Positions 1 through 6,300 of a stretch of DNA of 64,000 nucleotides are shown piece by piece. The notes beneath the pieces were generated by a model. That model saw only the letters and a list, made by a program, of their open reading frames with translations, was not told the origin of the DNA and made no database searches. Source of the stretch: a virus (taxonomy: Duplodnaviria; Heunggongvirae; Uroviricota; Caudoviricetes); IMG/VR virus record IMGVR_UViG_3300035520_000763, positions 7,032 to 71,031 of that record; one strand, given 5' to 3'. Within the stretch, counting starts at the first letter, position 1. Each line of letters starts with the position of its first letter. Both the position numbers and the translations under genes were made by a program.

Positions 1-937
1 TCTTACAATAGATTAAATAGTCATCCTTGGTATTATATGTTTCTATAAAATCCTTTAACCAGTCAATGTATTTTTGCGTGTCTTTATTGTCTTTCTGTAT
101 ACGATACATTCCATATACGGAAAGAGCTAATGAAGAAGTTTTGATTTTTACAGGATTCTCAAATGCTTCATCTAATTTATCAAGAGAATTTCTTATCGCT
201 TCGACTTTTGCCAAAGTTTTATCTTTTGTTTCTGAACTAGAAATTAATTCGTTATAATGAGCAATAAATTTATTCATATCATCGTTTCTAAATGAGCCAA
301 AATCATATTCATTGTTAATTTCAGTCAGCATCAAAATCTGTAAAACAACATCTCTGTCCAAATTCTTTTTGTATTGTGCTTTAGTTAAAACCTTTTCAAA
401 GAATGGATGAGAAGCGAGAGAGTACACAATTTCTCTTGTTTCATCACTCTGAATCGTACTTCTTTTACATCCATTAGACAACGGATGTCCCATATTAATA
501 CGGTCAAAAATATCATTTATTTCTTCAGAAGTTGCATCAACCATTGTGATTACAGTAATATCTCTCGACATGAATCTGTCTTTTACTGCTTCATCAAGTT
601 TTGAATATTTCTTTCCCGCAATTTCGTACTCAACATCATCAATTATAATTGGCTTTAAATCCTTTGACAATGCAAATTTATCATTTGCAAAATCAGCAAG
701 ACCGGTAAATCTTTGCTTAAAGTCAACTACATCTAATATTTTTGTATTACTGTGGCGATTAAGAAGTGCAGGAAAAATTGGATATAAACGAAGAACTGAA
801 TCAATGAATAAACTAATTTCCTTTTTGTTCCATATTCCAGCACGTCTTTGAATTGGTAAATCAAAATTGTATTTCCCTTTGCTAATATCATTAATCAAAG
901 ACTGCATACTTTTCGGTTGACTTTTAATATCTTCCAT
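1..937 (-). CDS. DUF262 (GmrSD N-terminal / ParB-like) domain protein, runs off the left edge
   Basis: Not in the ORF track; translated by hand from ATG 937 (SD GGAG). MEDIKSQPKSMQSLINDISKGKYNFDLPIQRRAGIW...FIDSVLRLYPIFP...VVDFKQRFT...DIFDRINMG matches the DUF262 motifs QR, DGQQR (here DFKQR) and FxxxN. Open to base 2. Confidence 0.8.
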   Translation of the reverse strand, partial: MEDIKSQPKSMQSLINDISKGKYNFDLPIQRRAGIWNKKEISLFIDSVLRLYPIFPALLNRHSNTKILDVVDFKQRFTGLADFANDKFALSKDLKPIIIDDVEYEIAGKKYSKLDEAVKDRFMSRDITVITMVDATSEEINDIFDRINMGHPLSNGCKRSTIQSDETREIVYSLASHPFFEKVLTKAQYKKNLDRDVVLQILMLTEINNEYDFGSFRNDDMNKFIAHYNELISSSETKDKTLAKVEAIRNSLDKLDEAFENPVKIKTSSLALSVYGMYRIQKDNKDTQKYIDWLKDFIETYNTKDDYLIYCK

Positions 938-987
938 ACTTTTTTATCTCCTAAAATATTAAAATTTATTAAAAAACTTACTTTTTA

Positions 988-1016
988 AGAGTAGTACGAT
1001 TTCTATAAAATGTCAA
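988..1016 (-). promoter_or_regulatory. sigma70-type promoter for the DUF262 gene
   Basis: TTGACA-17 nt-TACTCT on the minus strand. Confidence 0.6.
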
Positions 1017-1039
1017 TATTTTTTATTAATTATCTGAAT

Positions 1040-1568
1040 TGTTGAATATATTTATCATACCTCTCACAATAAGATAAATATAACGCAAAGTAGTTCAACT
1101 TCTACTGTAATTTGAGTGCGTTTCTCATTCTTCCCTGAGCACACATTAACGATTTTCAACCGTCCAGTCCTTATGCTCGATGAACATAGTCCAATGCAAG
1201 AAATCTTGTTTAGGACTGTCTGCTGCGGATTACAATTCTCAACTTGAAAGTTGTTACCATACCTTATGCTTTCACATTTGCCGCTATAGCCTTTCGTTCT
1301 ATAGTTTGGATTTATCAAGTTTCATAGAAAAGTCCCCGACCTATGTTTATACTTTCATAGGTACTGAAAAGAATATAATATATTCTTCGCTGCGTTTCTT
1401 AAAAGCTGTAACTTTTAAAATAGCAGCCACTATTACATGCCAGTCATTCTCTACTGTTTAACTATTGGAGTCCTTGCTTTGTATTTAACAAAGTTCGTAC
1501 ACATCACTGCTAAACTCCACGGTAGCCAGGAAGGAAGAATTGTTGATTAAAGTAATCAACCTCATCAA
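1040..1568 (-). ncRNA. group I intron 2 of the tape-measure gene (5' end and catalytic core; 3' end not found in the window)
   Basis: P1: exon GCGGUGGU pairs with the intron IGS GCUACCGU (1526-1519), giving U-G at the splice site. P-like GUCGGGGAC (~1340), Q-like AAUCCGCAGC (~1230), R GUUCAUCGAGCA, and P7 GAGCA (1178-1174) / UGCUC (1141-1137). The left boundary is approximate. Confidence 0.7.
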
Positions 1569-1889: not shown

Positions 1890-1921
1890 CTTTGTTGTTA
1901 AATAAGATTCGCAAAATCTTA

Positions 1922-2857
1922 CTAATGTTGATTACATAATTCTTTGTCTAAAATAATTTCAATATTATTATAATCCCCATATGGGATTCTTATAATCTTT
2001 ATGTTATTTTCAAAACAATAATTGTTTTTAATTTTATCATGATATACAGTTGTTTCATAATTTCTTGTTGCTTCTTCATAAGAAATTCCATTGAAGGTAA
2101 CTGGTTTATAATGGTGCTGCCCATCAAATTCGATAATAATATTTTGATTAGTCAAGTAAAAATCGAAGGGTAATGCATTTTTATCTTTACAATCATCAAA
2201 AATATATTGCTTTATATATGAATAGTTATTATGTTGTAAATAATTTTCTATTCTTTTTTCACCTTTAGAAAATTTATATTTCTTTTTATCAACACAATAT
2301 TTGCACCCAATAATATTGTCTCTATTCATATTTCCTCTACGCATATATTGAACACCAGCTTCTTTATGTTCATTGCAAATGAAACCAATACATATTCTTC
2401 CATTAATTGTTTTTGTTTCAATATACTCGAAATTTTTATCTTTACATAACTGTTTATCTTGTTCAATTTTATCTTTATTATAACCAGTTCTTCTGGCATT
2501 TTCTGTTATTTCTCTACCACACCAATAACAACCTCTACCAGATTCCAAATGACAAAGGCTTATAGTTTGTATCCCTTTATGTTCATGTTTTGGACATATA
2601 TATTTTAATGAATTAGTCGCCATGTCTTTAAAATCTTCTTCGTCAGAAATTAAAATATAATCTGTTTTTGCAAAGGCATTTTTTACATCTTCAAAACTAT
2701 GTTTTAATTTTTGACGTAACAAGCCCATTCTTTTTCTTTTATTAGCAATACTAATTTCCGTATGATTCGTAAGAAATAAAGATAACTCGTAATCAGTCAT
2801 TATTTGATAATTTTCCGTTATAAAATTTAATTCTTCATTAGTCCATTTATTTCGCAT
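1922..2857 (-). CDS. intron-encoded endonuclease, Vsr/DUF559-like (PD-(D/E)XK) C-terminus with Zn-finger and HTH-like N-terminal repeats
   Basis: C-terminal KGEKRIENYL...LPFDFYL...IIIEFDGQHHY; CPKH/CYWC and CNEH/CKYC pairs; SD GGAG; lies between P7 and the intron 3' end. Confidence 0.75.
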   Translation of the reverse strand: MRNKWTNEELNFITENYQIMTDYELSLFLTNHTEISIANKRKRMGLLRQKLKHSFEDVKNAFAKTDYILISDEEDFKDMATNSLKYICPKHEHKGIQTISLCHLESGRGCYWCGREITENARRTGYNKDKIEQDKQLCKDKNFEYIETKTINGRICIGFICNEHKEAGVQYMRRGNMNRDNIIGCKYCVDKKKYKFSKGEKRIENYLQHNNYSYIKQYIFDDCKDKNALPFDFYLTNQNIIIEFDGQHHYKPVTFNGISYEEATRNYETTVYHDKIKNNYCFENNIKIIRIPYGDYNNIEIILDKELCNQH

Positions 2858-2873
2858 ATTCTCCTTTCAAGAC

Positions 2874-2900
2874 AAAATAAAAAAGACCCAAAAGAGTCTT
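2874..2900 (-). terminator. intrinsic-terminator-like hairpin inside intron 1
   Basis: AAGACUC-UUUU-GGGUCUU followed by UUUUAUUUU. Confidence 0.55.
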
Positions 2901-3307
2901 TATGTATCAACATTCTTTATTTTTTCAATAAATGAACAGATCATGTCTTATTCCCTCGACTTTACGTTAGGGAACATACCTTTTCCATTTGACGGATTTT
3001 CACCGACTCCATTTGCGATTGAGCCGTACTTCTATTGGTTTAGATATTCAGGATTTCCACCTTTATTCTCTGGTCTAAACCTCCTCATCGGAGAATGATC
3101 GTTGAGCGTTTACCCTCGGCTTATCTGTCCTATGTTCTAGGATGACGTTAGGGTACTTCGTTGCAAATTAACCATTGTTATATCTCTAACTTTTTAATCC
3201 TTCATATAGTAGTTTCCTCTATATTGTGGCATAGAGCTTTAGGCAATCAATGCAGTTAAATATGTTCTTTGGAAATGTATTTCTATCATCTCCCTGGCAA
3301 AAATTTC

Positions 3308-6300
3308 ACCAGCTATCGTTTCCAGTAACAAGTTAAGATTATTTGTTCCTAATTCCTTATCTTTTTTAACAATGTCATCATATAAATCACTCAAACCTTC
3401 CATAATCTCGTAGGTTGATTTATAATTTCCATTAGCATCAAGAATATCAAATCCTTCACCACCAGCGGCAGCTTTAGTTGCATCTTTAATAGTATCTCTT
3501 AGCTTTGATACACTTTCGATATATCCTTCTGTATCTTCTCCTAATTCTTCAAGTTGTTCTTTACCTTCGGATGTTCCAACAAGTCGTAATGCAATTGTAC
3601 GCATTCCCGCGCCTACGCTATCAGCATCCTGAACTACAGCATTACCTGCCGTAACGAGAGCTAAAGCTTCATCCATTGAATTACCAGCTGTTTTTAAAGC
3701 ACTAGCCGATTTCTGTAAAGCAGAAGCCGCTTCATCTGTACTAATTGAGTAATTATTACCTACCTGGTTAAGTTTGTTGATGATATCCATTTTATCAAGG
3801 TCTGTATAGGCTTGACTCATGGCAATTAATGATTCAGTAGCATCGTCAATGTTATCAAATTCTGATACATTTAGTAAAATAGTAGTATCTTTAGCACTTT
3901 CAGAAGCCTGTTCCAAACTTTCTCCAAGTCTCATGTACGAAGCGGTCGCATCCTGTAACTCTAAAGCAGTAGTACCAATATCATCTGCAATTTCAAAAGT
4001 TGTCTGTTGAAATGCTTTTAAACTACTAACAGTTTCATCAGATACTTTTCTCATTTCTGTTAAAGCAGTATCCAATTCGCGAACTGTCTCAACCGTTTCG
4101 CCCAACTTGTTAATAATTGAATACACACTAAAATACATGCTAACAATTTGGGAAATATTGTTATAAAAAGCTTTATCTTTTAATATATCCAGCCAACTTT
4201 TACCAGCTCGACCAGCTTCACGTTCATGCTGTATAATAGTGAGACATTCAGCATCTATTTCTTTTAACGGTTTTGTTGGATTACCACTAACTAATTGATT
4301 ATAATATTTTTGAATAGCCGCTTTTGCCTCTTTGGACATTCTGGTATTCTCTTGCAGATATTTATTTAATTTCTCTGCCATTTTAGAAACGCCATCATCA
4401 GTCCATCCACGTTCACCAAGAGTAACACCTTTTTCCATCTGTTTAATGGTATTTTCAAGGTCTTTTTCTAAATTTTTAACTCTTTTTTCTTCAGCGGGTG
4501 AAACTATGCCATCATTTTTTTGAATATCTTGAATGGCGGTTTTATATTCATCTATTTGTTTTTGTAAATCAATTAATTTCTGTTTCCAAGAATCAAAAAT
4601 ATGCTCATCATCTGGCTTAATCTTAAAAGTATTCAGTTTGTTTTGGAATTTTTCAAGAGAGCTTTCCCATGAAGAGAACATAGAATTAGTAGATGTTTGC
4701 TCAGTTTTTCTTTGAACTGTATCAAGAGAATGACTTACATTATTTATACTTTCATTGATTTTGTTTATATGATTTGGTAAAAGAGTACCAGCATTTAATG
4801 CTTCTGATAATACTTCAGAAATTTTATTATCGAGTCTTTCAAGATCCTCGACGTCTCCCTCTAAAGCTTTATTACCATTAACTCTAGTTCCAACTTCTTT
4901 GTATTGGTTGATAAGAGCAATAATTTCTTGATATTTTTGCTTTGATTTTTCTAGTCCAGTATCTGTTTCATTTTTACCTTGTACTTTTGATAAATTACTT
5001 TCATATGTAGCAACGGTTTGTAATGCCTCTGCTCGACGCTTCTCATTAGAAATAATATTATCATATACAGATAATTGTTCCCCAAGAGATTTATGTATTG
5101 CCTGTTCAGTGGCAAGTTCTTGTTTAAGAGCAGTCGTATTTTGTCCGTTGCTTTCTGCGGTTTTTATATCAGTGCGCAATTTTAAAATTCGCTGTAAAGA
5201 ATTTTCTTGCTGTTCTAACAAAGATGTAGCAGACTTGATTTCAGCAGTATATACAGTACGGTCATCTCTAGCAGAATAATATACGCTTGAATCGTCATTA
5301 TATGTTTTTGTACCAGAACTATCAACAGAAACTAATTTAGCCCTAAGTTCTTCTAATTTAGCAATAGTTTCATCTGTAATTGTGCCATATTTACGGGCTT
5401 TTTCTATAAGTGCATCGTATTTAGCAACTTCTTCAGCACTAGCAACCTCTGTACTTTTCCCACCTAATTGACCAGTAGTAGGGTTGTTCGCTTTCTTTTT
5501 ATAAGCAGCAATTTCCTGATATTCTTTAAGTAATTTCTCGACTTCAAGAAACTCTTGTTCTGTAGAAGAGTCACGTTTTTGTCCTTTAAGATTATTTATT
5601 TTAGTCTCTATTTCAAGACGTTTGGTTTCCAACTCATTAAGATCTTTGGCATTTGTAACAGGTTTTTCTAAATCGTTGTTTGCTTTTGAATCATAAGTCA
5701 TCTGAATATGATTTAATTGTTGCTCATATTTTGCTAATTGGCGAGTAGCTTGTGTGATTGCCTTAGAATCAGCGTTACTTGATTTAGCAGTTTGTATATT
5801 ATTTTGCTTTTGTATTTCAGTATTTAAACGTTGCTGATTTTCTAAAATACGCTGTTGTTGAGTTTGAGTATCAGTACAATATTCATCCTGTTGAGCATAC
5901 AAATTAAGAGTCTTTTGCAATTCGTCTCTACGTTGTTGCGTAAGTCGGATTAGTTCTTCGTCAGCAGTAGTATCATAATTTGGATATGCCGCCTTAGTCT
6001 TATTCATATCCGTAGTTAGTTTATTTATTTGATTATCTGCCTTGATAATCTGATTAGCTACTTGCTCGAAATTAGTATTTAGACTTTGAACAGTCGGAAC
6101 CCATTCCTTAGTTTCATTATTCCAAGTCATTAAAGTTCTTTGGAGTTGTCCATCCTGTAGTCTTTCTAAATAAGAAAAACTACCTTCATAGCCTGTGACA
6201 TTACCGTTATCATCCATGATTGCTCTAAGTTCTTTTAGCCAAGATTGAGAAATAATATCTTTCCCTTCGGTTAGAACAGTCATTAATTCTCGTGCTCTAT

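Follow-up and report, generated by a model that had tools for sequence, protein, structure and literature searches.

A probable divergent group I-type intron in a phage tape-measure gene, with an island of predicted defence genes as its cargo

In the 64,000-nucleotide stretch of phage DNA analysed here (the window), the second exon of the tape-measure protein (TMP) gene runs into what resembles the 5' part of a group I intron, and that RNA is followed by a DUF262 gene. The question is where the TMP gene continues, if it does, and how its parts would be joined. A preliminary description of the locus, made from the sequence of the window, had offered three options: an intron carrying non-endonuclease cargo in a very large P9 loop, a discontinuous intron spliced in trans, or a TMP that simply ends here. 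All window positions given below refer to the minus strand. L001 is the genome contig of this phage; it reaches 7,031 nt to the left of the window, and only the first 1,568 nt of the intron in question (intron 2) lie within the window.

By translation, exon 2 occupies positions 1569-1889 (107 codons, KNRSNIAAS…AIQKSGG), and in relatives without intron 1 it joins exon 1 without a gap. Its end was described correctly as AGC GGT GGT, since AAA AGC GGT GGT is read at 1580-1569, and nothing TMP-like follows the RNA inside the window, again as described. The exon-2 frame stays open for 27 codons into the RNA and then meets a stop at 1487-1485. This read-through tail of 27 residues after KSGG (LMRLITLINNSSFLATVEF…) is alike in all lineages, and we account for its conservation by the location of P1a, the guide and P2 within it. 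A split intein was considered and rejected, because the tail starts with Leu and is much too short for an N-intein. The conserved 5' ribozyme part of intron 2, from the P1 guide to P9 and the 5' strand of a long-range helix, covers about 510 nt (1060-1568) and is kept in six lineages, while the cargo and the flanking protein diverge.

The leftward extension of the contig, which the preliminary description had proposed as a check, yielded what it was meant to look for: an omega-G and then a TMP exon without a start, in frame after KSGG, outside the window. This puts the 3' splice site at L001 2174, 6,426 nt downstream of exon 2, with an in-frame join (KSGG/PGKIISD…). On the minus strand, the open frame that holds exon 3 (L001 2242-2) has 747 codons or more and is cut by the contig end. 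The G at position -1 of exon 3 is invariant in 10 distinct loci, while positions -2 and -3 vary (UCG, ACG, UUG). When compared to the uninterrupted TMP P0145 (2,537 aa), exon 2 corresponds to residues 512-610 and exon 3 to residues 617-969, with 6 residues between them, and P0145 reads straight across the exon 2/exon 3 junction. SPbeta resembles this phage in genome size and in a tail module with DUF6558, and all three exons are collinear with its YomI (NP_046584.1; exon 1 at 349-578, exon 2 at about 610-690 and exon 3 at 744-848); unlike the TMP of this phage, YomI is one uninterrupted ORF of 2,285 aa. Because YomI and P0145 are both collinear across the junction, the option that the TMP ends at exon 2 is not supported.

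We then consider the RNA itself. The claimed core at 1340-1137 agrees with our assignment, in which the P4 5' strand lies at about 1338-1335 and the second strand of P7 reaches 1137. P7 (1137-1178) is also as claimed: GAGCA at 1178-1174 pairs with UGCUC at 1141-1137, and the relative L004 has the compensatory GAGUA/UACUC. It encloses the 3' strand of P3 and the P8 hairpin (1163-1149). The 5' strand of P3, CAGU at 1453-1456, pairs with ACUG at 1168-1165, between P7 and P8; of its four pairs, three have both partners changed, and all stay intact across 7 sequences. P3 and P7 together give the group I pseudoknot topology, enclosing the P4-P6 domain and P8. In the alignment of the 5' ribozyme part, 29 of the 87 RNAalifold pairs are changed on both sides. 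By helix, compensatory changes are present in P1a, P2, P3, P4, the P5 arm, P6 (3/5 pairs), P7 (1 pair), P8 (2 pairs) and P9 (5/6); no pair of P7 or P8 is broken.

The P4-P5 arm (1222-1341) consists of P4, CGGG/UCCG, with one R-Y compensatory pair, and a long P5 helix with a three-way tip that bears two GAAA tetraloops. The arm forms in each lineage, with differing sequence, and in 6 of 8 cases its duplex energy is better than that of all or almost all shuffled sequences. The Q-like strand AAUCCGCAGC at 1231-1222 is the 3' strand of P4, and the Q element UAAUCCGCAGC is identical to the RF00028 consensus over 11 consecutive nt. The R element retains GUUCA (GUUCA…CGA…A.AA), and the sequences of P7 and of J8/7 (S) are off consensus (for P7, GAGCA/UGCUC versus GACUA/UAGUC). 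A further departure from group I is the spacing of P3 and P4, which is usually 3-5 nt and here amounts to about 115 nt with two hairpins. Two earlier assignments were dropped. The first versions of P3, UUCAGU/ACUGGA in this phage and UUUAACU/GGUUAGA in L004, used a second strand that belongs to the long P5 helix, and a P4 of CGG/CCG (alignment columns 316-318 and 372-374) crossed a helix supported by covariation and had no covariation of its own.

The preliminary description had also set a search for a group I core with Infernal as a test beforehand, and formally this came out negative. RF00028 gave no match, either at its gathering threshold of 50 bits or at E<=10, in the 3.6 kb and 571 nt queries or in the relative L006. 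As a positive control, the introns of SPbeta bnrdE and bnrdF were recovered with the same tool (92, 42 and 37 bits). We judge the negative result insufficient, because covariation carries the core helices and Q matches the Rfam consensus as stated above. RF00028 measures likeness to a model and not mechanism, and the element is therefore filed as "group I-type, divergent". The U·G in P1, the omega-G, P10 and the P3/P7 core topology are all present. The intron-2 RNA is called here a divergent group I-type intron, for which guanosine-initiated self-splicing is predicted. In the phage GenBank collection no DNA match to the region was found by megablast or blastn, nor any match to exon 2 by tblastn. 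A scan of viral contigs with a 15-nt core pattern gave mostly chance matches, and its candidates were then screened with a profile.

The two splice sites would be tied to the ribozyme by its guide pairings. P1 was described accurately: the last 8 nt of exon 2, GCGGUGGU (1576-1569), pair with the internal guide GCUACCGU (1519-1526), with U·G at the junction. In L176 the guide variant GCCACCGU turns a G·U into a G-C and P1 becomes fully paired, and lineages C and D have one internal U·U mismatch. The P10 guide UUCCUGG (1526-1532) is complementary to the first 7 nt of exon 3, CCAGGAA (L001 2173-2167). P10 comprises 7 bp in all six lineages in which both ends are available. It includes a compensatory change from G-C to A-U (CCAGGAA/UUCCUGG in this phage versus UAGGAAA/UUUCCUA in relatives), and two further single changes produce G·U. 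In this phage the only copy of the target 7-mer within the 8.6 kb downstream is exactly at the proposed splice site; across lineages there are 1-2 copies over a downstream stretch of up to 9 kb, and the proposed site is always the one reached first. A pyrimidine tract in the P1 loop (1531-1540), sharing 2 nt with the P10 guide in this phage, pairs with a purine tract after P7 (J7/9, 1136-1127). This pairing of 8-10 bp, in which one change is compensatory, is also given by RNAalifold (49-56 with 467-474). The tract and J7/9 are a candidate placeholder pairing, which may mask the exon-3 guide before the 3' splice site is made. In this ribozyme the 3' splice site would be synthesised long after the core, and the element lends itself to testing.

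Between the two ends of the intron, one more pairing is found. The strand UUAUUGUGAGAGG (1060-1072) pairs with L001 2227-2215, 40 nt upstream of the omega-G. This long-range helix has 13 bp in this phage, including two G·U positions, and 7-11 bp in relatives (7 bp in lineage D). It occurs at the same aligned place in all lineages, and in lineage C both partners of three pairs have changed (AAAGAGAGG/CCUCUCUUU). The pairing fits a closure of the cargo into a loop after P9. Of the three options, cargo in the P9 loop thus fits the evidence, namely the omega-G with an in-frame exon 3, P10 and the closing helix. The helix is open to other readings, which weigh against it: its 3' strand is the antisense of the ribosome-binding site of a zinc-ribbon gene, the same covariation would be expected of terminal inverted repeats, and other duplexes of 8-13 bp arise by chance in AT-rich sequence (L030, L149).

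The cargo loop would start in the window at 1-1059, with a weak promoter-like site and the DUF262/GmrSD_N gene, and the remaining part of the intron is at L001 2174-7031. The loop has about 5.8 kb and six genes on both strands, two of them reverse-strand. The DUF262 gene had been called correctly; it runs from an ATG at 937 to L001 6961 (335 aa) and matches Pfam GmrSD_N (1.3e-11) and PADLOC NsnA (3.4e-34). No homing endonuclease (LAGLIDADG, GIY-YIG, HNH or His-Cys box) was found among the six cargo ORFs with Pfam, PHROGs and PADLOC. Across relatives intron 2 is 1,921-6,426 nt long, and the cargo families seen are GmrSD_N (DUF262)/NsnA, PBECR4, NYN, TIR, DUF3800, ToxN, MazF/PemK, a DndB-like protein with an N6_N4 methylase, and an AAA_15 ATPase. 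Relatives that are nearly identical elsewhere carry different cargo between the same flanks, which consist of the ribozyme, the zinc-ribbon gene and exon 3. The zinc-ribbon gene, a reverse-strand gene with a double zinc ribbon adjoining the 3' splice site, is always present; its protein has no family in Pfam, PHROGs or PADLOC, and the Atlas gives generic zinc-ribbon clusters only. With varied predicted defence and toxin genes at one position between conserved flanks, the loop has, as judged from gene content, the character of a prophage defence hotspot.

The expression signals in the cargo bear on whether one RNA could cover it. A sigma70 promoter had been claimed at 988-1016; its first hexamer is a perfect TTGACA (1016-1011), its second hexamer agrees at only 3 of 6 positions, and a consensus scan did not list the site, so that the promoter is weaker than claimed. 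Three terminator-like hairpins on the sense strand lie in the cargo (L001 2994-2970, 5169-5144 and 5880-5863), where 1.9 are expected for the whole scan. Because of these hairpins and the two reverse-strand genes, a continuous precursor needs read-through.

From the above, we propose that intron 2 is probably a divergent group I-type intron of 6,426 nt, extending from L001 8599 to 2174, with its cargo in a loop after P9, and that it is spliced in frame. In late transcription the RNA would run through the cargo loop. The guide would hold exon 2 by P1 and exon 3 by the 7-bp P10, the terminal G would dock, and the exons would be ligated in frame (…AIQKSGG/PGKIISDEIGL…). The predicted RNA junction is …AAAAGCGGTGGT directly to CCAGGAAAAATA…, with the junction peptide …AIQKSGGPGKIISDEIGLTEALDGK, and the equivalent junction predicted for the abundant Lachnospira-type relatives joins …AAAAGCGGTGGT to ATAGGAAAAAT…. 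The product would be one TMP of roughly 3,000 residues. The cargo loop would serve as a protected site of insertion and exchange, in which defence, toxin and regulator genes are swapped among related prophages. Having their own signals, the cargo genes could be expressed in the lysogen, and the TMP would be needed only in lytic growth. An essential virion protein thus seems to depend on splicing across a defence island.

Three other readings were weighed against this proposal. The late transcript might instead end in the cargo, and a second transcript starting inside or behind it would carry the 3' strand of the long-range helix, the last 40-60 nt of the intron and exon 3, the two RNAs being assembled in trans through the helix and P10. 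We regard trans-splicing as unlikely, though it keeps a place because the cargo holds sense-strand terminators, in excess of the chance expectation given above. The genes on both strands also point that way, and a helix of 9-13 bp with the 7-bp P10 could join two RNAs; in lineage D, however, the helix has just 7 bp, which is weak for assembly in trans. No homologue of a YonO-type polymerase, the SPbeta enzyme that would favour read-through, was found in this record, which says little because the record is about 76% complete. A second transcript would need a promoter, and the sense strand offers no convincing one from the last terminator (L001 2970) to the helix strand (2227): the best candidates score 9/12, at chance frequency, and the stretch is the antisense of the zinc-ribbon gene. 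Organelles do contain group I introns that are naturally trans-spliced or back-spliced (PMC6545197), whereas our literature searches for phages and bacteria yielded no trans-spliced group I intron.

The two halves might also be separate proteins, with TMP-N ending in the 27-residue tail at 1485, TMP-C starting at an ATG or TTG by the splice site, and the RNA acting in 3' end formation or cargo regulation or being the relic of an intron. The likeness of the tail in all lineages would agree with this, but the RNA elements inside the tail account for it. Likewise, in five loci exon 3 is preceded by TTG, and this phage has an in-frame ATG 4 codons ahead of the splice site, but L004- and L007-type phages have ACG directly before exon 3, and in the L007 type a stop stands two codons upstream of the conserved IGK and there is no ATG over 130 codons conserved in the protein. 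Exon 3 has no conserved start, the called starts differing among homologues, and a Shine-Dalgarno sequence before it is absent in all lineages. That Rfam calls no group I intron is in favour of separate proteins. Against them, the P10 guide follows changes at the very start of exon 3, for which a separate gene would give no reason, and fused relatives read through exactly here. We therefore consider this reading rather improbable, and less probable than splicing in trans. Least probable by far is a DNA element whose short inverted repeats are the two strands of the long-range helix, and which is removed or rearranged before late expression, so that the intron is compact again or the gene continuous. 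The cargo is indeed flanked by inverted repeats of 7-13 bp, which co-change between lineages, as repeats recognised by one enzyme would. Nevertheless, no recombinase or transposase was found in any examined cargo, inverted repeats lead to inversion and not excision, and flanking direct repeats are absent. In addition, the two G·U positions of this phage pair only as sense-strand RNA of the TMP gene, and after removal of the cargo the ribozyme would stay and splicing would still be required.

Returning to a single spliced intron with cargo after P9, we compared it with known systems. One parallel is the giant ND5-717 group I intron of corallimorpharian mitochondria, which is 18-19 kb long and whose cargo, in P8, consists of the organelle's own core genes (PMC6545197). 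There, as would be the case for intron 2, a peripheral segment has grown to many kb with other expressed genes and an essential gene needs splicing across them; here, in contrast, the host is a phage, the cargo lies after P9, and it is composed of variable accessory and defence genes on both strands. The hotspots of P2-like prophages and P4-like satellites (PMC9122126) share the fixed position, the conserved flanks and the differing anti-phage systems in close relatives. Those lie between genes, whereas the present one is inside an essential structural coding sequence and would be made harmless by RNA that is predicted to be spliced out.

The usual view of group I introns in bacteria and phages is that of compact selfish elements, with a homing endonuclease as their only possible cargo. 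We lean somewhat towards the view that, in an SPbeta-like prophage clade of gut Clostridia (Lachnospiraceae-type), a group I-type intron of the TMP gene has become a permanent docking site for exchangeable anti-phage and toxin modules. If this is true, the ribozyme allows an essential late gene to stay functional although kilobases of foreign genes, lying on both strands and equipped with promoters and terminators of their own, have entered it. Virion production could, in addition, be coupled to the state of the cargo by splicing or by its failure. Within the reach of our literature searches, such an element would be the first intron with a multi-gene, non-endonuclease cargo to be described from a bacterial virus, and it would represent a new class of defence hotspot. 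It would show that a phage intron can become a multi-gene carrier, so far seen only in some animal mitochondria, and that defence hotspots are found inside genes and not just between them. The second half of the TMP would then be what stands in metagenomic data, in thousands of cases, as "hypothetical proteins" of about 1,700-1,900 aa whose starts do not agree. For these phages, tail lengths and other properties predicted from the TMP would come out wrong without joining of the exons.

Introns in phage TMP and tail genes have been reported (PMC4299906, PMC3706429, PMC2504315). Intron 2 is like ordinary phage group I introns, for example those of SPbeta bnrdE and bnrdF, in its location in a phage gene, the U·G 5' site, the guide, the terminal G and the P3-P9 topology. 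The ordinary introns have 0.2-1.5 kb and at most one homing endonuclease gene; the intron 2 type, in contrast, has 1.9-6.4 kb and up to six unrelated genes, carries no recognisable homing endonuclease and is negative for RF00028. Intron 1 of the same TMP gene is of the ordinary kind, and its ORF matches the HNH endonuclease family phrog_559 (7.5e-36).

The source is a single contig of 138,604 bp (31% G+C), classified by IMG/VR as linear and about 76% complete. The window covers its positions 7032-71031; the contig continues for 7,031 nt past the window's left end, and window coordinates are obtained by subtracting 7031 from the L001 coordinates (L001, contig positions 1-9000). The tape-measure (TMP) gene occupies the left edge of the window on the minus strand, and its exon 1 (window 6898-3239) is a 1,219-codon ORF with a Pfam PhageMin_Tail match (4.4e-15). 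It is followed by intron 1 (window 1890-3238, minus), which has a P1 and a 311-aa HNH/homing endonuclease ORF (window 2857-1922, minus; phrog_559, 7.5e-36). This P1 is short and textbook, GCUGGU pairing with GCCAG, and an Rfam RF00028 search of intron 1 gave no detection. Because relatives without intron 1 (loci L004, L005 and L007) read unbroken as …LLLETIAGKNRSNIAAS… / …ETIAGKNRSNIAAS…, with exon 2 continuous with exon 1, exon 2 is fixed as window 1889-1569 (minus). As the preliminary description stated, it ends with AAA AGC GGT GGT (window 1580-1569), its final 8 bases pair with GCUACCGU (window 1526-1519) with a G opposite the splice-site U, and no TMP-like exon follows the intron core within the window. 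The exon 2 frame stops 27 codons on.

The same description had considered that the TMP might end here. When the contig was followed leftwards, an in-frame, start-less TMP exon was found after a G at L001 2174/2173. Its frame begins at L001 2242 and stays open for at least 747 codons on the minus strand, as far as the contig end; it matches residues 744-848 of the SPbeta tape-measure protein YomI (tblastn). Since exon 1 matches YomI 349-578 and exon 2 about 610-690, the three exons are collinear with one uninterrupted TMP. In some of the 2,555 relatives retrieved from 1.8 billion representative proteins, the exons are fused. For example, P0145 (2,537 aa) aligns with exon 2 over 512-610 and with exon 3 over 617-969, and its stretch between them, …GLIPVAISAIYTVTKAKDKNGLGKALLDYIGVTEKLGG…, corresponds to …GLIPIAISTIFTAIQKSGG plus PGKIISDEIGLTEALDG… of the studied phage. 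Exon 3 is cut by the contig start (L001 1-2) and a plus-strand ORF by the contig end (L002 9663-9998). Therefore, the two ends cannot be closed into a circle, and the remaining TMP and the distal tail genes are missing from the record.

The 3' splice site was located by aligning the DNA upstream of exon 3 in the studied phage and its relatives. A G always directly precedes the conserved exon 3 coding sequence in the aligned loci, the junction being UCG|CCAGGAAAA in the studied phage, ACG|AUAGGAAAA in the Lachnospira-type clade, which is abundant, and either UUG|AUAGGAAAA or UUG|UUAGGAAGA in other loci. When exon 2 is joined at this site, the frame is kept in every case. Intron 2 thus measures 6,426 nt (L001 8599-2174), and 1,921-5,494 nt in relatives. 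The seven bases lying 5' of the P1 guide can pair with the start of exon 3 (P10), as UUCCUGG/CCAGGAA in the studied phage versus UUUCCUA/UAGGAAA in others, where the G-C versus A-U difference is compensatory and two more single changes produce G·U. The 7-mer target of P10 was counted over up to 9 kb downstream of the 5' splice site: it occurs once in the studied phage, L004, L149 and L176, and twice in L007 and L006; the first occurrence is the proposed 3' splice site in every case checked.

Conservation over the approximately 510 nt following the 5' splice site exceeds that of the preceding protein and continues through the stop codon. Six lineages were compared: A (the studied phage), B (L004, L007 and L009 types), C (L149), D (L006 and L170), E (L030, its 5' end cut by the contig) and F (L176). 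RNAalifold predicted 87 pairs on the RNA alignment A2, with changes on both sides in 29 of the 87, and covariation was tabulated helix by helix on the same alignment. Compensatory changes occur in two pairs of the P1a hairpin, one pair of P2, three of the four pairs of P3 (CAGU/ACUG, window 1456-1453 with 1168-1165, minus; none broken), 3/5 of P6, 1/5 of P7, 2/6 of P8 and 5/6 of P9. The P7 reported earlier, GAGCA (1178-1174) paired to UGCUC (1141-1137), was confirmed, and L004 has the covarying version GAGUA/UACUC. P4 has a single R-Y switch, and the 7-bp helix adjoining it on the 5' side exists in four sequence versions. The long P5 arm has its own sequence in each lineage and yet pairs in all of them, better than all or nearly all shuffles in 6/8, and a three-way tip bears two GAAA tetraloops.

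P3 and P7 form an interlocked, group I-like topology that encloses P4-P6 and P8, the Q strand (UAAUCCGCAGC) is identical to the RF00028 consensus across 11 nt, and the R element retains GUUCA. The Rfam group I search of the core gave zero matches, both at the gathering score and at E<=10. Of the positive controls from SPbeta, the bnrdE intron scored 92 bits and the bnrdF intron, which contains an ORF, 42 and 37 bits. The core departs from group I in about 115 nt with two hairpins between P3 and P4, in the long P5 arm, and in altered but compensated P7 and J8/7 sequences at positions that RF00028 treats as fixed letters; these departures probably explain the miss. With such a core, a negative search and a working control, we call intron 2 a divergent group I-type intron rather than a plain family member. 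The P9 region (window 1117-1126 and 1082-1087, minus) also appears pseudoknotted: a short stem UGAG/CUCA, covarying by eye as UAAG/CUUA and AGAGU/ACUCU, encloses a loop that pairs downstream as AACGCA/UGCGUU (5/6 pairs compensatory). In addition, the pyrimidine tract of the P1 loop (1540-1531) pairs with the purine tract immediately after P7 (1136-1127, minus) in a duplex of 8-10 bp that shows one compensatory change and overlaps the exon 3 guide by 2 nt in the studied phage. To our knowledge, no named group I pairing corresponds to it; speculatively, it might cover the guide as a P10 placeholder until exon 3 is transcribed.

The conserved RNA after P9 ends with UUAUUGUGAGAGG (window 1072-1060), which pairs with L001 2227-2215 over 13 bp, including two G·U, 40 nt upstream of the terminal intron G. 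Helices of 7-11 bp occupy the same aligned positions in other lineages, and in lineage C, AAAGAGAGG/CCUCUCUUU differs from UUGUGAGAGG/CCUCUCACAA by three pairs changed on both sides. Because both ends of the cargo, the genes inside intron 2, pair across lineages, the cargo would be looped out by a peripheral helix that lies beyond P9, an option envisaged in the preliminary description. We consider the helix probable but short of certain: its 3' strand is antisense to the neighbouring gene's ribosome-binding site, terminal inverted repeats would covary likewise, and DNA this rich in AT has chance duplexes of similar length. In most relatives the cargo begins with a conserved hairpin, GGACUGUCGUGAGACAGCCC, that lacks a U tract and lies about 60 nt past the 5' strand of the helix in L007, L009, L006, L170 and L004; the studied phage has the DUF262 promoter-like site in its place.

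The cargo of the studied phage consists of six genes: a DUF262/NsnA-like gene (L001 7968-6961, minus), an 82-aa ORF (6560-6312, minus), a PBECR4 nuclease-toxin domain protein (5915-5154, minus), a 197-aa coiled-coil membrane protein (4350-4943, plus), an NYN-domain protein (3964-3080, minus) and a 192-aa double zinc-ribbon protein (2238-2816, plus). The DUF262 gene (335 aa; GmrSD_N 1.3e-11, PADLOC NsnA 3.4e-34) indeed comes next after the exon 2 frame stop; the promoter ascribed to it has a perfect -35 hexamer, but its -10 is weak and it is absent from the consensus scan list. The cargo set is a different one in relatives whose ribozyme and exon flanks are nearly identical: HTH regulators with a TIR protein or DUF3800; GmrSD_N with ToxN and MazF/PemK; a DndB-like protein with an N6/N4 methylase; an AAA_15 ATPase; or an S24 repressor with large unknown proteins. 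In L149 3107-5487 (relative G001), for instance, ToxN, the toxin of a type III toxin-antitoxin system (6.9e-39), and MazF/PemK (7.9e-22) accompany the GmrSD_N protein. None of the cargo ORFs matched a homing endonuclease family. The sole constant gene is that of the zinc-ribbon protein (28-53% identity, protein alignment A3; about 190 aa, one ribbon at each terminus), which matched no known family and always adjoins the 3' splice site on the opposite strand; it might have a part in splicing, intron mobility or lysogeny. The 3' strand of the long-range helix contains the ribosome-binding site of this gene, and the 40 nt between that strand and the splice site contain its extended -10 promoter, TGTTATAAT (L001 2200-2208).

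The anatomy of intron 2, its covariation and the in-frame, collinear junction are observed, and from these sequences we infer that the exons are ligated at the RNA level. We favour, with some reserve, splicing in cis, in which a late transcript would read through the cargo and exons 2 and 3 would be joined. Splicing in trans, with two transcripts kept together by the long-range helix and P10, seems unlikely to us, even with three terminator-like hairpins on the sense strand of the cargo and no YonO-type polymerase found in the approximately 76%-complete record.

That the TMP is made as two separate proteins is a distinctly improbable reading. At least 17 of the best 150 clusters of exon 3 homologues start with 'MIGK…', exactly two residues ahead of the conserved Gly-Lys, and other called starts among these clusters are arbitrary internal Met residues; such scatter is the expected pattern of gene callers on a start-less exon. 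A Shine-Dalgarno sequence at the exon 3 start is absent in all lineages aligned, and L007-type phages have a stop two codons upstream of the junction and no ATG over 130 codons, yet these codons are conserved as protein. A rearrangement at the DNA level is scarcely credible.

Phage tail and TMP genes are already known to host group I introns. Giant group I introns with embedded genes occur in corallimorpharian mitochondria, where the ND5-717 intron, 18-19 kb long, carries the greater part of the genome within P8 and is excised by back-splicing (PMC6545197). Our literature search found no group I intron of a phage or bacterium whose cargo is multi-gene and other than an endonuclease, and no defence hotspot inside an intron. 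Prophage defence hotspots (PMC9122126) have the same pattern of varied cargo, but here the cargo lies inside a coding sequence. Some relatives have more inserted genes between exon 3 and the conserved DUF6558 tail gene (L006 11895-13583, L177 9393-11667), encoding a NUMOD1 protein, a proteasome-like protein and a CapR/DUF4379-like protein; these inserts may mark another variable spot or lie in an additional intron.
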